A stretch of 64,000 nt of DNA from assembly GCA_963667175.2 (NCBI GenBank), contig CAXXXF010000015.1, forward strand, positions 800,001-864,000, given 5' to 3'. The stretch comes from Candidatus Latescibacterota bacterium. GTDB taxonomy: Bacteria; Latescibacterota; UBA2968; GCA-2709665. The notes under the pieces were generated by a model. The model ran no database searches and was not told the DNA's origin. It saw only the letters and a program-made list of their open reading frames with translations. Numbering within the stretch: the stretch's first letter is position 1; every line of letters starts with the position of its first letter. A program made the translations under genes and the position numbers. Shown here piece by piece: positions 1,630 to 50,167 of this stretch.

Positions 1630-4365
1630 ATGAGCGAACCAGAGAAAAAGCTTTACCTGCTGGACGGAATGGCGCTGGTTTACCGGGCCCATTTCTCCAT
1701 GATTCGCAACCCGCGAATGTCCTCTACAGGCCTGAATACGTCGACGGTATTCGTGCTCACGAACACCCTGCTGGACATTCTGAACAATGCGGATCCCAGC
1801 CATATCGGCGTTGTATTCGACACGCCCGAGCCAACCCACCGGCACAGGATGTTTCCCGAATACAAGGCCCAGCGCGAGGCCATGCCCGAGGATCTCAGCG
1901 CGGCGCTACCCTACGTCTTTCGCCTGTGCGAAGCGTTCAACCTGCCCGTTGTCAGGGTACCCGGATGGGAAGCGGACGACGTGATCGGAACGCTGGCCAA
2001 ACAGGCAGAAACGGCGGGGTTTACAACCTATATGGTCACACCCGACAAGGACTACGGCCAACTGGTCTCGGACCGCACCTTCGTCTGCAAACCGGGTCGC
2101 ACCGGCGACGTCGAAAACCAGGGAGTCAACGAAATTCTGGAGAAGTGGCAGATCGAACGCGTGGAACAGGTCATCGATATCCTGGGCCTGATGGGCGACA
2201 GTTCGGACAACGTGCCCGGCGTGCCGGGCGTGGGTGAAAAAACCGCCCAGAAACTCATCGGAAAGTATGGAAGCATAGAGAACCTGCTCGACCATACGCA
2301 CGAACTCAAGGGAAAACAGAAGGAACGCATTGAAGAAAACCGCGAACAGGCGCTGCTTTCCAAGAAACTGGTCACAATAGAGCGCGACGTGGTGCTGGAA
2401 GTAAAGCCCGATGACCTGGAACGTGTCAATTGGGACGAGGCGAAATTGCAGGCGCTGTTTGTCGAGCTTGAGTTCAATACCCTCGGCCAGCGACTGTTCG
2501 GCGACTCGTTCAAGGCGGGTCCCACAGCCGCAACCGACGAGGTCGGAGGAGACGTCCGCACGATCGAGGACGTGGAGCACGAATACAAGCTGGTGGATAC
2601 CGCGGAGTCGCGAAGAGAACTCATCGACGCGCTGAGTCAGCAGAAGGCCTTCTGTTTCGACGTCGAAACCACGGGCCTGAACCCCAGGAAGTGCGATTTG
2701 ATCGGCCTCGCCTTTTCCTACGAAGCGCACACGGGATTCTATGCGCCATTGCCCGACGTGCCTGAAGAGGCGCTCGAAATCCTGGAGACGTTTCGTCCCG
2801 TCCTGGAGGATCCGGAAATCGAGAAGATCGGCCACCACCTTAAATTCGATCTGAGCGTATTGCGCTGGAAGGGATTTCGGGTCAACGGGCCTCTGTTCGA
2901 CACCATGCTTGCCGCTTATCTGGCCGCGCCGGACCTTCGCCGCACCATGGACTATCTCTCCGAAGCGCTGTTGGGATATCGCCCCATACCAATTTCCGAC
3001 CTCATCGGCGAAAAAGGCGAGGACCAGCTGAGCCTGCCGGACGTTCCGCTGGACCAGGTAACCACGTATGCGGCTGAGGATGCGGACGTAACCCTTCAAC
3101 TGAGCGAAGTCCTGAGGTCCATGCTCGAAGATATGGGGCAGGTGCGCGTGTTCCGGGACGTGGAATGTCCGCTCATCCCCGCCCTGGTCGAAATGGAACG
3201 CGAAGGCATCCGGTGTGAAGCCGGGGCGCTTCGAGATTTGTCCGACGGGCTCTCGGGAGAAATCGATCGGGCCAGGGAGCAGATTTTCCAACTTGCAGGA
3301 GAACAATTCGATCTCAACTCGCCCAGGCAACTGGGCGACGTCCTGTTCGACAAACTGAAACTCGACCCGAACGCGCGCCGGACGGCCAGGACCAAACAGT
3401 ACCAGACCACGGAACAGGTCCTGCGGCGGCTGGCGTACAAGCACCAAATCGTGGAACAGGTGATGTTTTACCGGATGTGCGCCAAATTGAAATCCACCTA
3501 CGTCGACCAGTTGCCGGGTTCGATTTTCAAACCCACGGGCCGAATCCATACCAACTACGAGGCGGCGGTTACCGCGACCGGCCGTCTGCAGTCTAACGGT
3601 CCGAATATGCAGAATATCCCCATCCGCACCGAAATGGGCCGGGAGATCCGAAAGGCCTTCGTGCCGCGCGATGAAAGCCACGTGCTGCTTGCCGCCGACT
3701 ACTCCCAGATCGAACTCCGCGTTGCCGCCGAACTCAGCGGGGACGAAGCGCTCACGGAGGTTTTCAGGCAGGGCGGCGACGTCCACACGGCGACCGCTGA
3801 AAAAATCTACGGCATCGAAGAGGCTACCGAAGATATGCGGCGCCACGCGAAAACCGTCAACTTCGGCATTATCTACGGCATCTCGGCGTTCGGCCTCGCC
3901 GAACGCCTGGACATCACCCGAAAGCAGGCGGGCGAACTCATCGCCAATTACTTCGATCAGTTTCCCGGCATCCGGACCTACATGGACGAGACCATCGAGT
4001 TCGCCCGGGAAAACGGATACGTGGAGACGGTCACCGGTCGCCGCCGCTATCTGCGGGATATCAACTCGCGCAACGCCACCACCCGGAAGGGGGAAGAGCG
4101 AAACGCCATCAACTCGCGAATCCAGGGCACGGCCGCGGACATGATCAAACTCGCGATGAGCCATATCCATCGCGAGATTCTGGAACGTGACCTCAGATCC
4201 CGTATGCTGCTTCAGGTTCACGACGAACTGGTCTTCGATATGCGCCTGGACGAAGCGGATATCCTCCCGACCATCGTCGAAGACGCGATGAAATCCGCCA
4301 TTCCGATGCGGGTTCCCATCGTCGTGGAAATGGGCACGGGGACGAACTGGCTGGACGCGCATTGA
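1630..4365 (+). CDS. polA: DNA polymerase I
   Basis: 5'-3' exonuclease (LLDGMALVYRAH, EADDVIG, GDSSDNVPGVPGVGEKTA), 3'-5' exonuclease (FDVETTGL), polymerase motifs (ADYSQIELR, AKTVNFGIIYG, LLQVHDELVF). Confidence 0.98.
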   Translation: MSEPEKKLYLLDGMALVYRAHFSMIRNPRMSSTGLNTSTVFVLTNTLLDILNNADPSHIGVVFDTPEPTHRHRMFPEYKAQREAMPEDLSAALPYVFRLCEAFNLPVVRVPGWEADDVIGTLAKQAETAGFTTYMVTPDKDYGQLVSDRTFVCKPGRTGDVENQGVNEILEKWQIERVEQVIDILGLMGDSSDNVPGVPGVGEKTAQKLIGKYGSIENLLDHTHELKGKQKERIEENREQALLSKKLVTIERDVVLEVKPDDLERVNWDEAKLQALFVELEFNTLGQRLFGDSFKAGPTAATDEVGGDVRTIEDVEHEYKLVDTAESRRELIDALSQQKAFCFDVETTGLNPRKCDLIGLAFSYEAHTGFYAPLPDVPEEALEILETFRPVLEDPEIEKIGHHLKFDLSVLRWKGFRVNGPLFDTMLAAYLAAPDLRRTMDYLSEALLGYRPIPISDLIGEKGEDQLSLPDVPLDQVTTYAAEDADVTLQLSEVLRSMLEDMGQVRVFRDVECPLIPALVEMEREGIRCEAGALRDLSDGLSGEIDRAREQIFQLAGEQFDLNSPRQLGDVLFDKLKLDPNARRTARTKQYQTTEQVLRRLAYKHQIVEQVMFYRMCAKLKSTYVDQLPGSIFKPTGRIHTNYEAAVTATGRLQSNGPNMQNIPIRTEMGREIRKAFVPRDESHVLLAADYSQIELRVAAELSGDEALTEVFRQGGDVHTATAEKIYGIEEATEDMRRHAKTVNFGIIYGISAFGLAERLDITRKQAGELIANYFDQFPGIRTYMDETIEFARENGYVETVTGRRRYLRDINSRNATTRKGEERNAINSRIQGTAADMIKLAMSHIHREILERDLRSRMLLQVHDELVFDMRLDEADILPTIVEDAMKSAIPMRVPIVVEMGTGTNWLDAH

Positions 4366-45762: not shown

Positions 45763-47253
45763 ATGATTCTCGCCATCGACCAGGGCACCACGGGCACGAC
45801 CGTGCTCGTTATCAACCGTAGAGGCGACGTCAGGGGCCGCGCCTACACGGAATTCAATCAGATTTACCCGCAGCCCGGCTGGGTATCGCACAACGTGGAG
45901 GAAATCTGGCGTTCCACGCTCGGCGTGATCGCCGAGGCCTTACGAAACGCAGGTGTGCGTACCGCGGACCTGGCCGGCATCGGGATCACCAACCAGCGGG
46001 AAACCACCGTCCTCTGGGACCGATGCACGGGTGAACCCGTCCACGACGCCATTGTGTGGCAGTGCCGGCGTACGACAGACCTGTGTCGCGCGTACCGGGA
46101 ACGAGGGCTCGAGGAAACGGTCAGTGAAAAAACGGGTCTTGTCATCGACCCCTACTTTTCCGCGACCAAAATCGCCTGGCTCCTGGAAAACGTGCCCGGC
46201 CTACGAAGGCGTGCCGAGGCAGGCGACGTCTGCTTCGGCACCATGGACGCCTATCTTCTGTACCGCTTGACCGGCGGCAAGGTACACGCGACGGATCTCA
46301 CCAATGCATCCCGAACCATGTGTTTCAATATCCACACGAAGACATGGGACGCCGACCTGCTGGACGCGTTCGACGTTCCGCGGGCGATCCTCCCGGAGGT
46401 CCACCCTTCCGCCCATGTGTTCGGAATCACCGCGGGCGGGGGCCCGTTGCCGGAAGGCATTCCCATCGCCGGGATCGCGGGAGACCAGCAGGCCGCCCTC
46501 TTCGGTCAGCGCGGCGTTTCCGAGGGTGACGTCAAGAACACCTATGGGACCGGCTGCTTCGCTCTGTTCCATACGGGATCCAACGCGTTCTCGTCGCAGA
46601 ACGGCCTGCTCACCACGCTCGCCTGCGACGCCCGCGGCGGTCCGGCCTTCGCCCTGGAAGGCTCCGTCTTCAGCGCCGGATCGGCCGTTCAGTGGTTGCG
46701 CGACGGCCTGGGCCTGATCGCGGAGTCGTCCGATACGGAAGTCCTTGCCCGATCGGTTCCGGATAACAACGGCGTCTACCTGGTCCCCGCGTTCACGGGC
46801 CTGGGCGCGCCCTACTGGGATCCGGACGCACGCGGAACCATTGTGGGCATCAACCGCGGAACGGACCGGGCCCACCTCGCGCGCGCCGCGCTCGAATCCA
46901 TCGCCTATCAGAGCGCCGCGCTCGTAGACGCCATGGCCGCGGACACGCGCCGCCCGGTTACCGGAATCCGCGTTGACGGCGGCGCATCCGCGAACGACTT
47001 CCTGATGCAGTTCCAGGCGGATATCCTCAATACGCGCGTGATCCGGCCCCGGCATACCGAGACAACCGCCCTGGGGGCCGCCATGCTCGCGGGGCTTACG
47101 ACCGGCTTCTGGACCGGCCCTGAGGCGCTTTCGGAACTGAATCCACCCGAACGTACGTTCGAACCCTCCATGTCCCAAAAAAAGCGCGAAGCCCTGCTGA
47201 ATCGCTGGCGTCACGCCGTTCAGACCGCCCGTAGCCACGGGAATCCGGAATAA
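45763..47253 (+). CDS. glpK: Glycerol kinase
   Basis: AIDQGTTGT, GITNQRET, IVWQCRRT, DPYFSATK, GDQQAALFG, KNTYGTG, PAFTGLGAPYWD. Confidence 0.96.
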   Translation: MILAIDQGTTGTTVLVINRRGDVRGRAYTEFNQIYPQPGWVSHNVEEIWRSTLGVIAEALRNAGVRTADLAGIGITNQRETTVLWDRCTGEPVHDAIVWQCRRTTDLCRAYRERGLEETVSEKTGLVIDPYFSATKIAWLLENVPGLRRRAEAGDVCFGTMDAYLLYRLTGGKVHATDLTNASRTMCFNIHTKTWDADLLDAFDVPRAILPEVHPSAHVFGITAGGGPLPEGIPIAGIAGDQQAALFGQRGVSEGDVKNTYGTGCFALFHTGSNAFSSQNGLLTTLACDARGGPAFALEGSVFSAGSAVQWLRDGLGLIAESSDTEVLARSVPDNNGVYLVPAFTGLGAPYWDPDARGTIVGINRGTDRAHLARAALESIAYQSAALVDAMAADTRRPVTGIRVDGGASANDFLMQFQADILNTRVIRPRHTETTALGAAMLAGLTTGFWTGPEALSELNPPERTFEPSMSQKKREALLNRWRHAVQTARSHGNPE

Positions 47254-47286
47254 AAAAAGCGATCGCTAAGAGCGGGGAGACGGAGA

Positions 47287-47353
47287 AAGGAAGAACGAAG
47301 AACGAAGAAGGAAGAAGGAAAACCTGAAACCAGTGAGACGTGAGAGGGTAGAC
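47287..47353. repeat. GAAGAA(C/G) heptamer run + GTGAGAC motif
   Basis: aaggaagaacgaagaacgaagaaggaagaaggaaaacctg..gtgagacgtgagagggtagac, similar to 34893-35040. Confidence 0.65.
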
Positions 47354-47473
47354 GGGAGAGGTGGTGGTAACTCTTCCGAATGATACCTCCACACGTGGAC
47401 TCTCGTTACATCAAATGGAAATTACTTTAAAGTTTCCCAATCAACTAGAGGACAGTTGACAATGCATTTCAAA

Positions 47474-48106
47474 TCATCTTCTCCACCTATTCGGACAACG
47501 CAGGATATTGCCATCACGCTTTCTTATCTCCAAGGGCAACCTGCTTTTTCGAAATCTGCTTTCCCTGATCGGAAATGCGCTCGTTGAAACCGCGGATAGT
47601 TCGTTTGAATGCCTGCCGGGTGGGAATGCAACAATGACCCGTTTATTTGGATGGCGCGCAATTACTGCCTTTATTGGGGGAGACAGATCGCTGTCACCGG
47701 ATACCACGATTGCGGTGTCAAACCTGTCATCATGTGCGTCACAGAGCAATTCAACGGCAATGGATACATCAGTCTTCTTCTCTTCGGCGCCGTACCAATT
47801 TGCTCCGCATCGCCTGCAGCTAACAGACTTATCGATATAATGACCATAGTAGAACGTAACGTCTCCAATGGCTTCCAACGCTTCAAGGTAGGTGTTCTGG
47901 CGTTTCCATTTTCCCCAGTTTCCCGGTCTTTGGGATACACGCGACGTAAAATACTTAACCGCTTCCAATTCCTGAGAATCCTTAAGCAGGGATTCTGACA
48001 ATCGCACTAAATCGAGCCAGAGATAGCGATTACTCCACTTTTCTTTTATTCCAAAGTAGAGGTTGAATCCGTCTACGTATGCAATGACCCGATTCTTATT
48101 ACGCAT
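47474..48106 (-). CDS. NYN-domain (LabA/DUF88, PIN-like) ribonuclease
   Basis: YVDGFNLY, EEKKTDV.IA..L..DA, VSGDSDL.P, S.EL. AT-rich relative to the flanks. An alternative GTG start lies at 48118. Confidence 0.9.
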   Translation of the reverse strand: MRNKNRVIAYVDGFNLYFGIKEKWSNRYLWLDLVRLSESLLKDSQELEAVKYFTSRVSQRPGNWGKWKRQNTYLEALEAIGDVTFYYGHYIDKSVSCRRCGANWYGAEEKKTDVSIAVELLCDAHDDRFDTAIVVSGDSDLSPPIKAVIARHPNKRVIVAFPPGRHSNELSAVSTSAFPIRESRFRKSRLPLEIRKRDGNILRCPNRWRR

Positions 48107-48127
48107 CTTCCGTGTCACCGGTTTTTA

Positions 48128-48156
48128 TTGACAATTACTCTAGTGATTGGTATATT
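48128..48156 (+). promoter_or_regulatory. Near-consensus sigma70 promoter divergent from the NYN gene
   Basis: TTGACA(48128)-17 nt-TATATT(48151). Confidence 0.75.
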
Positions 48157-48162
48157 GGTGAC

Positions 48163-48243
48163 GTGCTATAGCATTTGTGCCCCCCGGAGGATAGTATTCT
48201 CCGGCCCGACGCCCACTGTCTCTGACAGGGGCGTTTCTTTTTT
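48163..48243 (+). ncRNA. Candidate ~80-nt structured small RNA next to the NYN gene
   Basis: Follows a consensus promoter. Hairpin ccggaggata-g-tattctccgg (48184-48204), terminator stem acgccc-a-ctgtc-tct-gacag-gggcgt plus ttctttttt. No credible ORF. Confidence 0.55.
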
Positions 48244-48373
48244 GAATCTGACGGCTTTCGGATTTTTGCTCAATTCGATTTCCCACTTCCGGAGTCCGTC
48301 CAAACGTGGGTATGGCGGCCCTCTGCCTTCCCTCCGCTCCCCCGACAGTCGCCGTCAAATGGAAGGGTGCGGT

Positions 48374-48479
48374 CCTCTCCCGCCTTTTGGAGAGGGGGCC
48401 GGGGGAGAGGTCTGCGTTGACTTTCGCTTTTGATTCAAGCTGACAGCTGAAAGCTGACCGCTGATTGCTGCTTTTCTCC
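48374..48479. repeat. CCTCTCCC hairpin + GCTGAnn heptamer repeat
   Basis: Matches 35138-35206 and 39196-39236. Related runs at about 40280-40302 and, reversed, about 50298-50330. Confidence 0.7.
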
Positions 48480-48493
48480 CCCTCTCCCCGCCT

Positions 48494-50167
48494 CTATTCG
48501 TCCGTCACGCATCCTTCCGATGCAGTCGTGACGGTCTTGATGTATTTGTATAGCGTGCCTTGCGTTGCCTTGTATGGGGGGGGCGTCCAGGCTGCCCGCC
48601 GTCTTGCCAGTTCCTCGTCGTCCAGGTTGACGTTGATCTCGTTGGCTACCGCGTCAATGGTGATCACGTCGCCGTTTTCGATCAGGGCGATGGCGCCGCC
48701 CTCCTGCGCTTCGGGCGTGATATGCCCCACGACGAACCCGTGCGAACCCCCCGAAAAGCGTCCGTCCGTTATCAACGCCACGTCATTGCCCAGGCCCGCG
48801 CCCATGATCACCGACGTGGGCGTGAGCATCTCCGGCATGCCGGGACCGCCTTTGGGCCCCTCATAGCGGATGACGACAACGCATCCCTTCTTGACGTCGT
48901 TTCGCTCCACCGCTCCGAGGAGGTCCTCCTCGCGGTCGAACACCATCGCGGGCCCGGTGAACCGCACGCCCTCCTTGCCCGTAATCTTGGCCACCGCGCC
49001 CTCGGAAGCCAGGTTTCCACGCAAGATCCGCAGATGCCCGGTGGTTTTTATCGGCCGGTCGAGCGAGCGAACCACCTGCTGCCCCTCGTCGAGCCCGGGC
49101 AACTCCGCCAGGTTCTCCGCGATCGTCCTTCCCGTTACCGTCAGACAGTCGCCGTTCAGCAGGCCGTTCTCGAGCAGGACCTTCATTGCGCCGGGCGTTC
49201 CGCCCACGTTGTGCAGATCTTCCATGACGAATTGTCCGCTTGGCTTGAAGTCCGACAACAGAGGCACCCGGTCGCTCACCGCCTGAAAATCGTCGATTGT
49301 CAACGGGACGCCGACGGATTTCGCGATTGCGATCATGTGCAGCACCGCGTTGGTCGATCCGCCAAGGGCCATCACCACGACGATCGCGTTTTCGAATGCC
49401 TCGCGCGTCATGACGTCGCGGGGTTTGATGTCCTTCTCGAGCAGGTTCCGGATGGCCGCGCCGGACTGGAAGCACTCCTCCAGTTTTCCCTTGTCCACGG
49501 CCGGCGTCGAGGAACTGTAGGGCAGCGACATGCCCATCGCTTCGATGGCGGACGCCATCGTGTTCGCGGTGTACATCCCCCCGCACGCGCCGGCGCCCGG
49601 ACAGGCGTGCTGCACGACGCCCTTCCGTCCCTCCTCGTCCAACTCGCCGGCCAGGTACTCGCCGTAGCTCTGAAAGGCGGACACGATGTCCAGCTTCTTG
49701 CGGTCTCGGAAGCCCGGTTTGATCGTGCCTCCGTAGATCATCAACGACGGCCGGTTCAACCGCCCCATCGCCATCACGCAGCCGGGCATATTCTTGTCGC
49801 AGCCCGGGAGGGATATATTGGCGTCGTACCACTGCGCGCCCATCACGGTTTCTATGGAATCCGCAATGAGGTCCCGCGACTGCAGCGAAAAGCTCATGCC
49901 TTCGGTGCCCATCGAGATCCCGTCGCTGACGCCGATGGTGTTGAATCGCATGCCCAGCAGACCCGCCGCGTCCACGCCCTGCTTCACCTTCGCCGCGAGG
50001 TCCAGGAGATGCATATTGCAGGTATTGCCTTCATACCACATGCTGGCGACGCCGACCTGCGCCTTGTCCATATCCGCTTCGGTCATTCCGGTTCCGTACA
50101 ACATCGCCTGGGACGCGCCCTGGGACTTCACCTGCGTAATGCGGGAACTGTACTTGTTCAGCGCCAT
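48494..50167 (-). CDS. ilvD: Dihydroxy-acid dehydratase
   Basis: [63 protein letters not shown]. Confidence 0.97.

Follow-up and report, generated by a model that had tools for sequence, protein, structure and literature searches.

An NYN-fold ribonuclease gene of the HEC-09 family and a small structured RNA gene lie back to back in a 64,000-nucleotide stretch of DNA from Candidatus Latescibacterota bacterium (contig CAXXXF010000015.1, positions 800,001 to 864,000; hereafter, the window, numbered from its first letter). Of 80 related loci that represent more than a dozen phyla, 77 have a homologous RNA within ~350 nucleotides (nt) of the NYN gene, and the two-hairpin fold of this RNA is maintained by covariation. 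These observations are best compatible with a type III-like toxin-antitoxin or abortive-infection module in which the RNA would serve as the antitoxin, a reading that appears to have about an even chance of being correct.

The NYN gene is located on the minus strand (47474..48106). The underlying open reading frame (ORF; 47474-48118) spans 214 amino acids (aa); translation starting with the ATG at 48106 yields a protein of 210 aa, as long as those of the closest relatives, and the GTG at 48118 is the alternative start codon. The protein matches the Pfam NYN domain (PF01936) with an E-value of 2.6e-12 and 47.9 bits, against a curated cut-off of 24.2, and the PADLOC profile HEC-09 (PDLC04163) over its full length (ORF residues 9-213, profile positions 2-203 of 203; E 7.9e-83, 275 bits). 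Scans of the protein against Pfam and NCBIfam identify NYN only, with no match to ToxN, CptN or TenpN, nor to Abi_2/AbiD/F. A preliminary description of this DNA, made from the sequence alone, had reported an NYN gene with intact acidic motifs, and this stands, given the PF01936 match and the invariance of D12, D113, D138 and D140 (as well as C97 and C100) in 86 aligned relatives; its label of an uncharacterized standalone LabA/DUF88 protein has to be replaced, because the protein is a full-length member of a published candidate defence family. That family is large (4150 proteins at E <= 0.001), and includes two relatives with 98% and 84% identity to the window protein (P0001 and P0002, respectively).

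The AlphaFold2 model of the protein has a mean predicted local distance difference test score (pLDDT) of 90.6 and a predicted template modelling score (pTM) of 0.87. A Foldseek search started with this model identifies as the top folds in the PDB the entry 2qip (E 7.6e-11) and the NYN domains of MARF1, 5yaa and 6fdl (E 1.2e-4 and 3.2e-4), with sequence identities of 10-22%. Compared with these structures, the window protein has a C-terminal extension; there is also an inserted beta hairpin (residues 89-110) with the invariant CxxC motif (C97, C100), a region where the matched NYN domains are too short, and this hairpin could be involved in binding a metal or RNA. A preprint (bioRxiv 10.1101/2024.01.29.577857) describes HEC-09 among nine 'Hma-embedded candidate' systems, and its accessible text notes the resemblance of the NYN protein to the MARF1 NYN domain, with three aspartates in common; there, HEC-09 stands as a one-gene system, and the main text uses neither of the terms 'ncRNA' and 'non-coding'.

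The 80 related loci (designated by L numbers) come from one scan of the GTDB species genomes with an alignment of 23 homologues (protein identity, 41-53%). They belong to Gammaproteobacteria and Betaproteobacteria, Myxococcales, Desulfobacteraceae, Acidobacteriota, Chloroflexota, Actinomycetota, Bacteroidota, Ignavibacteriota, Chlorobiaceae, Planctomycetota, Opitutaceae, Oscillatoriaceae, KSB1, Neomarinimicrobiota and Hydrogenedentota. Almost everywhere, the same element is seen on the opposite strand in the 300 nt upstream of the NYN gene. A covariance model (R1), built from a MAFFT alignment (A2) of 43 RNA copies and searched against the window and the 80 loci (809,204 bases), yields 90 matches at E <= 1.4e-7, every one of which adjoins an NYN gene; four further weak matches (E 0.21-0.38) are left out of the counts of 90 copies. 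The 64-kb window contains exactly one match (48171-48242, 50.8 bits, E 5.7e-13). Three loci give no match: in L069 and L073, the contig provides only 149 and 85 nt upstream of the gene, respectively, and L056 has a copy that appears degenerate by eye. The copy counts are lower bounds, an extra copy in L018 having been seen by pattern and missed by the model search. The NYN homologues at L050 3106-3720 and L069 150-770 each contain one in-frame stop codon in an otherwise intact sequence and could be pseudogenes or sequencing errors; L050 nevertheless keeps the RNA, at 62.4 bits.

The fold shared by these RNAs is under clear comparative constraint. In the MAFFT seed alignment, which was not fitted to structure, 98.1% of the 727 cells are paired, compared to 78.8% after shuffling (none of 500 shuffles reaches the observed value) and to 37-53% in slid controls; 14 of the 17 pairs change on both sides, and there are 154 compensatory cells versus 36.7 in shuffles. 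In the alignment of all 94 matches, which is fitted to the model and therefore leans towards the structure, 97.1% of 1542 cells are paired, both sides vary in 16 of the 17 pairs, and the compensatory cells number 298 versus 70.8 in shuffles. Both hairpins contribute: all eight pairs of the first, P1, change on both sides among the relatives (96% of cells paired), as do eight of the nine modelled pairs of the second, P2 (98.2% of cells paired). The element varies in length from 57 to 76 nt, with no steps of three. Unpaired positions are invariant across phyla, namely C13 in 90 of 90 copies and the loop G in 89, which would fit recognition by a conserved partner; the loop A is kept in 85 of 90.

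Two further structural candidates were dismissed. The pairing of GCCCC with GGGGC (48179-48183 with 48228-32), which the preliminary description had put forward as a switch or a pseudoknot-like contact, is at the control level and finds no comparative support, with 60.5% of the cells paired versus 57.8% in shuffles and up to 71.3% in slid controls. More generally, mutual information among the unpaired columns is at most 0.22, compared to 0.87-1.49 for the true pairs, a measure to which a pseudoknot formed by invariant bases is invisible. The idea of an anticodon-loop mimic, prompted by a loop that reads A-U-AGC-A-U, was abandoned, since covariation shows the flanking A-U to be a true pair.

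In the window, the RNA gene is read from the plus strand and begins with a promoter (48128..48156) that consists of TTGACA (48128-48133), a 17-nt spacer and TATATT (48151-48156), with 11 of 12 consensus matches and with TG preceding the second hexamer. It is the sole promoter-like site found in a scan of 46800-49000 (mean of shuffles, 1.2) and lies 9 or 21 nt from the two candidate NYN start codons. Judging from this promoter, transcription would start near 48161-48163. The first part of the RNA is a window-specific leader (48161..48176), followed by a single-stranded 5' tail, GUGCCCC (48177..48183), which corresponds to AACCNC in the family (C at columns 10 and 13 in 88 and 90 of 90 copies, respectively). 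Next come P1 (48184..48204), in which eight base pairs (CCGGAGGA / UUCUCCGG) enclose the pentaloop UAGUA, in the family (U/G)AG(C/U)A, and the pyrimidine linker CCC (48205..48207), with C or U at columns 67-68 in 90 and 86 of 90 copies. P2 (48208..48235) is formed by GACGCCC(A)CUGUC, the loop UCU and GACAGGGGCGUU; it is a bulged, 12-base-pair, G+C-rich intrinsic-terminator stem with a conserved base, GACGCC...GGCGUU. The RNA ends in the U-rich tail UUUCUUUUUU (48234..48243), with U at columns 105-112 (C at 107) in 60-87 of 90 copies. A terminator scan identifies the stem 48217-48233 followed by TTTCTTTTTT. All features of the preliminary description, among them the promoter and the U-tailed GC stem opposite the NYN gene, are where it had placed them. 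The dyad tgctatagca to which it had also drawn attention is present in the leader (48164-48173) but is not conserved in the relatives and falls outside the covariance-model match, which begins at 48171. The distance from the second promoter hexamer to the conserved tail is ~10-18 nt in the relatives versus 26 nt in the window. The leader segment 48164-48179 (GCUAUAGCAUUUGUG) resembles a P1 loop that runs into the UUUGUG junction found between tandem units in L013 and L018, and may, as a speculation, be the remnant of a lost upstream RNA copy.

Several lines of evidence indicate which strand is functional. Folding of the plus strand of 48160-48245 yields three hairpins at -33.5 kcal/mol (z -3.45; one of 200 shuffles is as good), compared to a z of -2.29 for the minus strand, and on the strand of NYN and the adjacent gene, ilvD, the stem is followed by GUCGGG, with no U run. 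Among the 90 copies, G.U pairs outnumber A.C pairs 128 to 15 (66 to 12 without the one pair that is usually G.U), and therefore the fold is selected on the strand that bears the U tail and the promoter. A predicted promoter of the type used in the respective lineage is located just upstream of 67 of the 90 copies (mean of shuffles, 4.7; maximum, 11): sigma-70-type sites with at least 9 of 12 matches are found in 55 copies and a Bacteroidota-type TAnnTTTG box in 20. Seven of the 23 copies without a promoter site are downstream members of tandem arrays that start right after the preceding U tail. Taken together, these signals suggest that the RNA is separately transcribed from its own promoter.

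The placement of the RNA relative to the NYN gene varies. The related loci contain 89 copies: 80 lie upstream in divergent orientation, with the start of the model match 16-200 nt from the NYN start codon; two (L045 and L079) are upstream and co-directional; and seven, in L017, L021 (four copies), L034 and L063, are downstream and convergent. L045 and L079 show the ToxIN order of RNA, terminator and toxin, with 16-26 nt between the end of the U tail and the NYN start codon; given the terminator in between, the NYN gene would be reached by read-through only. Copy number varies as well: among the 77 loci, 67 have one unit, nine have two and one has four. In the latter (L021 5658-6038, from Dehalococcoidia), four tandem units of ~104 nt, each with its own TTGACA promoter, RNA and terminator, are located downstream of the NYN gene, and there is no upstream copy. 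Such variation in placement would fit an RNA that acts in trans rather than by its position.

Copies of the RNA are also encountered in phage genomes. Dolichospermum phage Dfl-JY45 carries the RNA (56.7 bits, E 6.8e-17) between unannotated genes, near a polyvalent ART-PolyVal protein, and Flavobacterium phage 11b carries it (45 bits, E 3.3e-13) in an unannotated gap after the lysis genes, directly behind a TATATTTG box. A tBLASTn search detects no NYN gene in either phage, and the proteins encoded next to the RNA show no likeness to NYN; for the Dfl-JY45 neighbours, which were considered as candidates, hhalign gives a probability of 0.2, and there is no Pfam NYN or PADLOC match. Among phages as a whole, tBLASTn searches with two queries, the window protein (E <= 1e-5) and a homologue from Flavobacterium (E <= 1), identify NYN relatives in three records only, the latter search having added one 19-residue chance match. 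BLASTN searches of phages with the RNA copies of L015 and L051 yield one true match each and those with the copies of L026 and L004 none; a search with a phage's own RNA copy finds that copy only. The Flavobacterium genome of L051 carries the full module of RNA and NYN. Phage TE is reported, in the accessible text on this phage (PMC3475682), to carry and expand a pseudo-ToxI that suppresses ToxIN, and by analogy the orphan phage RNAs would match this mimicry.

The related loci are often found in defence islands. The nearest left-hand ORF, available in 76 of the 80 loci (the neighbour scan covered the left-hand neighbours), has a PADLOC match at E <= 1e-5 in 31 of the 76. HmaA is the best match in 11 of these neighbours; the others match parts of type I, IIG and III restriction-modification systems, BrxC, Cas3, Cas9, DpdE and Dsr1, as well as PDC-S01, AbiLii, PD-T7-4 and an HKD-Snf2 protein. 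This neighbour is usually co-directional with NYN, and its end is separated from the RNA terminator by 9-40 nt. The RNA was also found on three of the four larger plasmids that were searched. In the Thermus oshimai megaplasmid pTHEOS01 (L087), a helicase-related gene, the RNA (59.9 bits) and NYN follow one another within a defence cluster of this cultivable thermophile; the module comes after parA, parB and the helicase-related gene, with an IS4 transposase and a Swt1-family HEPN gene on its other side. In a Streptomyces plasmid, the RNA is upstream of NYN on the same strand (37.9 bits), and in a Microbacterium plasmid it is divergent from NYN (34.6 bits). As its low G+C content and many insertion contexts indicate, the module is clearly mobile.

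A mechanism compatible with all these observations would involve two components, a HEC-09 NYN-fold ribonuclease and a ~65-80-nt RNA with its own strong promoter and its own intrinsic terminator, the RNA being composed of the conserved 5' tail, P1 with its pentaloop, a two-pyrimidine linker and the terminator hairpin P2. The abundant RNA would bind the nuclease and hold it inactive, as the type III RNA antitoxins do. A phage that shuts off host transcription or destroys the RNA would free the nuclease, which would then cut cellular or phage RNA and abort the infection, and a phage that itself encodes the RNA would maintain the inhibition. That the RNA acts in trans and is recognized by NYN is suggested by the combination of invariant unpaired nucleotides, a compensated fold, free placement, strong promoters, amplification and the phage orphans. 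An inhibitor is favoured over a cofactor because of the orphan phage copies and the amplification; the few ToxIN-ordered loci point to an antitoxin as well. The preliminary description had proposed a dedicated, separately transcribed structured RNA as the partner of the NYN protein, and this part is strongly borne out by the 77 of 80 loci, the covariation and the promoters, whereas the antitoxin role that it also proposed is one that we infer.

A number of points weigh against this interpretation. With its different toxin fold, its usually single RNA unit, its usually separate and divergent promoters and the lack of a pseudoknot signal, the module departs from most of the formal criteria of type III systems; hence it is only 'type III-like'. 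The phage orphans number only two, both detected with BLAST at limited sensitivity. Where the RNA and NYN are divergent, as in most loci, the RNA promoter directly adjoins the NYN start codon; the NYN mRNA therefore probably begins on the far side of the RNA gene and would contain its complement, so that an antisense effect may come into play. According to the accessible text of the preprint (bioRxiv 10.1101/2024.01.29.577857), HEC-09 protected E. coli against none of the phages tested, and no toxicity is mentioned there. Such apparent inertness would follow from the RNA-antitoxin reading, if it is correct.

Some more distant HEC-09 members, moreover, have no match to the RNA model, and these count against the proposed pairing as well. 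There is none on a Methylobacterium plasmid that carries HEC-09, and none on two ~3.5-kb E. coli plasmids, L085 (NZ_CP091696.1) and L086 (NZ_AP023432.1). The latter two encode HEC-09 proteins with 33-37% identity and consist of little beyond the replicon, a helix-turn-helix gene and the divergent NYN gene; their NYN proteins may be paired with another kind of RNA or be controlled by a regulatory protein. Next to the NYN start codon, both plasmids have other hairpins with T runs, and tBLASTn identifies similar plasmids of 3.4-5 kb in Serratia, Salmonella and Klebsiella. The HEC-09 gene of Mycobacterium phage prophiGD43A-1 (L083 2489-3109; 30% identity, PADLOC E 3e-39), located between integrase/regulator genes and the immunity repressor, has no RNA-model match either, nor does the unverified phage contig MT836335.1 (L082; HEC-09 at 41.7% identity). 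In L082, three different hairpins that end in a T run occupy the same divergent position (2380-2500, minus strand). A search of E. coli complete genomes with a gammaproteobacterial module yields no match.

The main rival to the antitoxin reading, although itself unlikely, is a cis-encoded antisense RNA of a type I-like kind: the NYN leader would be fully complementary to the RNA, and duplex formation, cleavage or polymerase collision would lower NYN expression. The prevalent layout suits this explanation, in that 80 of 89 copies are divergent and upstream at a distance that leaves little or no room for an NYN promoter, and in many loci the co-directional gene that ends close to the RNA terminator would give read-through antisense across the RNA; base-pairing in trans between the host leader and an RNA supplied by a phage could also occur. 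The remaining nine copies, co-directional or downstream, have no overlap with the leader and yet retain the same sequence and structure. Furthermore, a cis-antisense RNA needs no conservation of sequence because complementarity to its target is automatic, whereas here unpaired nucleotides are invariant across phyla, and the G.U to A.C bias indicates selection on the fold of one strand only. Type I systems pair an antisense RNA with a small, usually membrane-active toxin; the candidate here is a 210-aa soluble nuclease.

It is rather unlikely that the RNA is instead a positive partner of the nuclease, i.e. a scaffold, cofactor or sensor in a ribonucleoprotein effector rather than an antidote to a toxin. 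The strict co-occurrence and the conserved unpaired nucleotides would suit any stable RNA-protein complex, and the HEC-09 clone that gave no phenotype against the tested phages carried, as stated in the accessible text (bioRxiv 10.1101/2024.01.29.577857), the putative native promoter region. The 5' tail, however, is too short and too invariant for a guide, and the presence of two to four copies fits a dosage-dependent inhibitor better. The two phages that carry the RNA without the nuclease also argue against this possibility, because an orphan RNA is useful to a phage only if it inhibits or misdirects the nuclease.

A role of the element in the surrounding operon, either as an insulator or terminator that separates NYN from the upstream defence gene or in the regulation of the surrounding host system, is very improbable. 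Large defence genes of one direction (HmaA, BrxC, restriction-modification subunits) often lie on both sides of the module, and in the window the hairpins lie between the co-directional ilvD and NYN, as this explanation would have it. The U tail, however, is on the strand opposite to these genes, and their strand reads GUCGGG after the stem; the RNA accompanies NYN in every setting, the housekeeping insertion of the window included, and in the 809 kb searched it never occurs beside other defence genes without NYN. The simplest version, a mere ilvD terminator, is rejected because both the U run and the excess of G.U pairs mark the opposite strand, which has its own promoter.

Finally, the possibility that the hairpins act as DNA, for example in a recombination or attachment site of the mobile, low-G+C module with its many insertion contexts, or that they hide a small protein gene on the NYN strand, where an ORF of at least 30 aa crosses 73 of 88 copies (in the window, a 72-aa ORF at 48140-48358), is barely tenable, given that lineage-type promoters and U tails accompany the element, that the G.U bias marks one folded strand, that the element lengths of 57-76 nt show no steps of three and that the antisense of the element is stop-free per frame in 45-67 of 87 copies, which makes the ORFs a by-product of composition, a protein antitoxin encoded there being rejected because the crossing ORFs are spread over the three frames, counted from the conserved loop (40, 43 and 26).

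In the window itself, the module (47474..48243) is inserted between an FGGY kinase gene (glpK-like) and ilvD, which has the same direction as NYN, rather than embedded in Hma or another multi-gene defence system. The composition profile and the flanking genes confirm the AT-rich unit of the preliminary description: G+C is 0.44-0.51 across 47150-48350 versus 0.60-0.70 in the flanks, and the low-G+C insert that holds the whole module extends over 47254..48493 (no strand assigned), from the glpK-like gene to ilvD. Imperfect inverted repeats (I1, 47272-47293, and I2, 48468-48491; 15-20 nt, 75-87% complementary) are located at the insert edges, immediately inward of the stop codons of the two flanking genes, glpK-like and ilvD, and could be either the ends of the inserted element or chance matches of a purine run to a pyrimidine run. 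Additional repeats in this region include a purine-rich tandem pair downstream of the NYN stop codon (47278-47319, 21 nt x2), a 14-nt tandem, AAGCTGAC(A/C)GCTGA, between the RNA and ilvD (48437-48464), and further G-rich and C-rich inverted repeats (48369-48415 and 48394-48489).

A conserved promoter and a covarying structure beside NYN homologues, together with a scan of Rfam, were the checks suggested in the preliminary description; the former are found, with the RNA in 77 of 80 loci, and in the latter no family of Rfam 15 matches the RNA. There is no Rfam 15 match to the element at E <= 10 in the window region 46500-49500 and none at E <= 1 in the whole loci of seven relatives, the only matches being two at chance level in each set, none on the element. 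Open full texts on NYN in combination with RNA antitoxins, type III systems, non-coding RNA or phage defence contain no published account of this RNA that we could find, with supplements and subscription journals lying outside this search, and NYN, LabA and DUF88 are absent from the main texts of a paper on 224 motifs and of a 2026 preprint on non-coding sequence space. Thus, we could not find the RNA class beside HEC-09 described elsewhere.

If the pairing holds, the RNA would constitute a new conserved bacterial RNA class with clear covariation and a defined protein partner, and HEC-09 would possess a hidden second component, which would change the design of cloning and assays. RNA antitoxins would then extend to the NYN fold, which is also found in eukaryotic RNA-decay factors such as MARF1, and to an architecture with separate promoters, and the RNA-only copies of the cyanophage and the Flavobacterium phage would represent natural anti-defence by antitoxin mimicry, a directly testable prediction. 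The covariance model offers a simple finder of such modules and their phage counterparts in genomes. A broader formulation, with a chance slightly short of even, is that these modules form a fourth, very widespread protein-RNA family of toxin-antitoxin or abortive-infection systems, with an NYN toxin and a two-hairpin, own-promoter RNA that would be recognized via its pentaloop, often nested as a back-up in Hma, BREX or restriction operons, and with phages countering by the RNA alone.

Among known systems, nesting of this kind recalls PrrC, an anticodon nuclease in the EcoprrI restriction locus that is a latent ribonuclease checked by the restriction proteins and serves as a second line of defence; unlike PrrC, the nuclease of the window is of the NYN fold and is paired with an RNA. 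The same fold and the acidic active-site residues are shared with the MARF1 NYN domains and VPA0982 (PDB 2qip), from which the window protein differs by the low identity of 10-22%, the CxxC beta hairpin and the C-terminal extension. We know of no partner RNA for the MARF1 NYN domains or VPA0982. The setting resembles that of the loci in the HEC-09 preprint (bioRxiv 10.1101/2024.01.29.577857), in that relatives lie inside Hma, BREX and restriction-modification loci; in contrast, the window copy is not in a defence operon, and the accessible text of the preprint has the gene alone. AbiF provides another parallel: according to the accessible text (PMC12373285), it is neutralized in cis and in trans by direct binding of a non-coding RNA of Clostridioides difficile, RCd22 (abiF motif), and thus is also a defence-type toxin with an adjacent structured RNA outside the three classic type III families, although the protein family (Abi_2/AbiD/F) and the RNA motif both differ.

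The closest comparison is with the type III systems ToxIN, CptIN and TenpIN, which, as described in the accessible text (PMC5086642), likewise combine an endoribonuclease with a dedicated small RNA and a Rho-independent terminator in an anti-phage setting. Again as in type III systems, more RNA than protein is likely to be made, and some relatives have tandem units. The distinctions are that the toxin has the NYN fold and does not belong to the ToxN, CptN or TenpN families, that the window RNA, like that of 67 of 77 loci, is one unit rather than an array of tandem short repeats, that it is divergent with its own promoter instead of sharing a single promoter with the toxin, and that only two plain hairpins and no signal of a pseudoknot are seen in it. 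The type III order of RNA, terminator and toxin is found only in L045 and L079 (two of 89 copies) and in the Streptomyces plasmid. As with ToxIN, for which the pseudo-ToxI of phage TE is the precedent (PMC3475682, accessible text), phages carry copies of the RNA.

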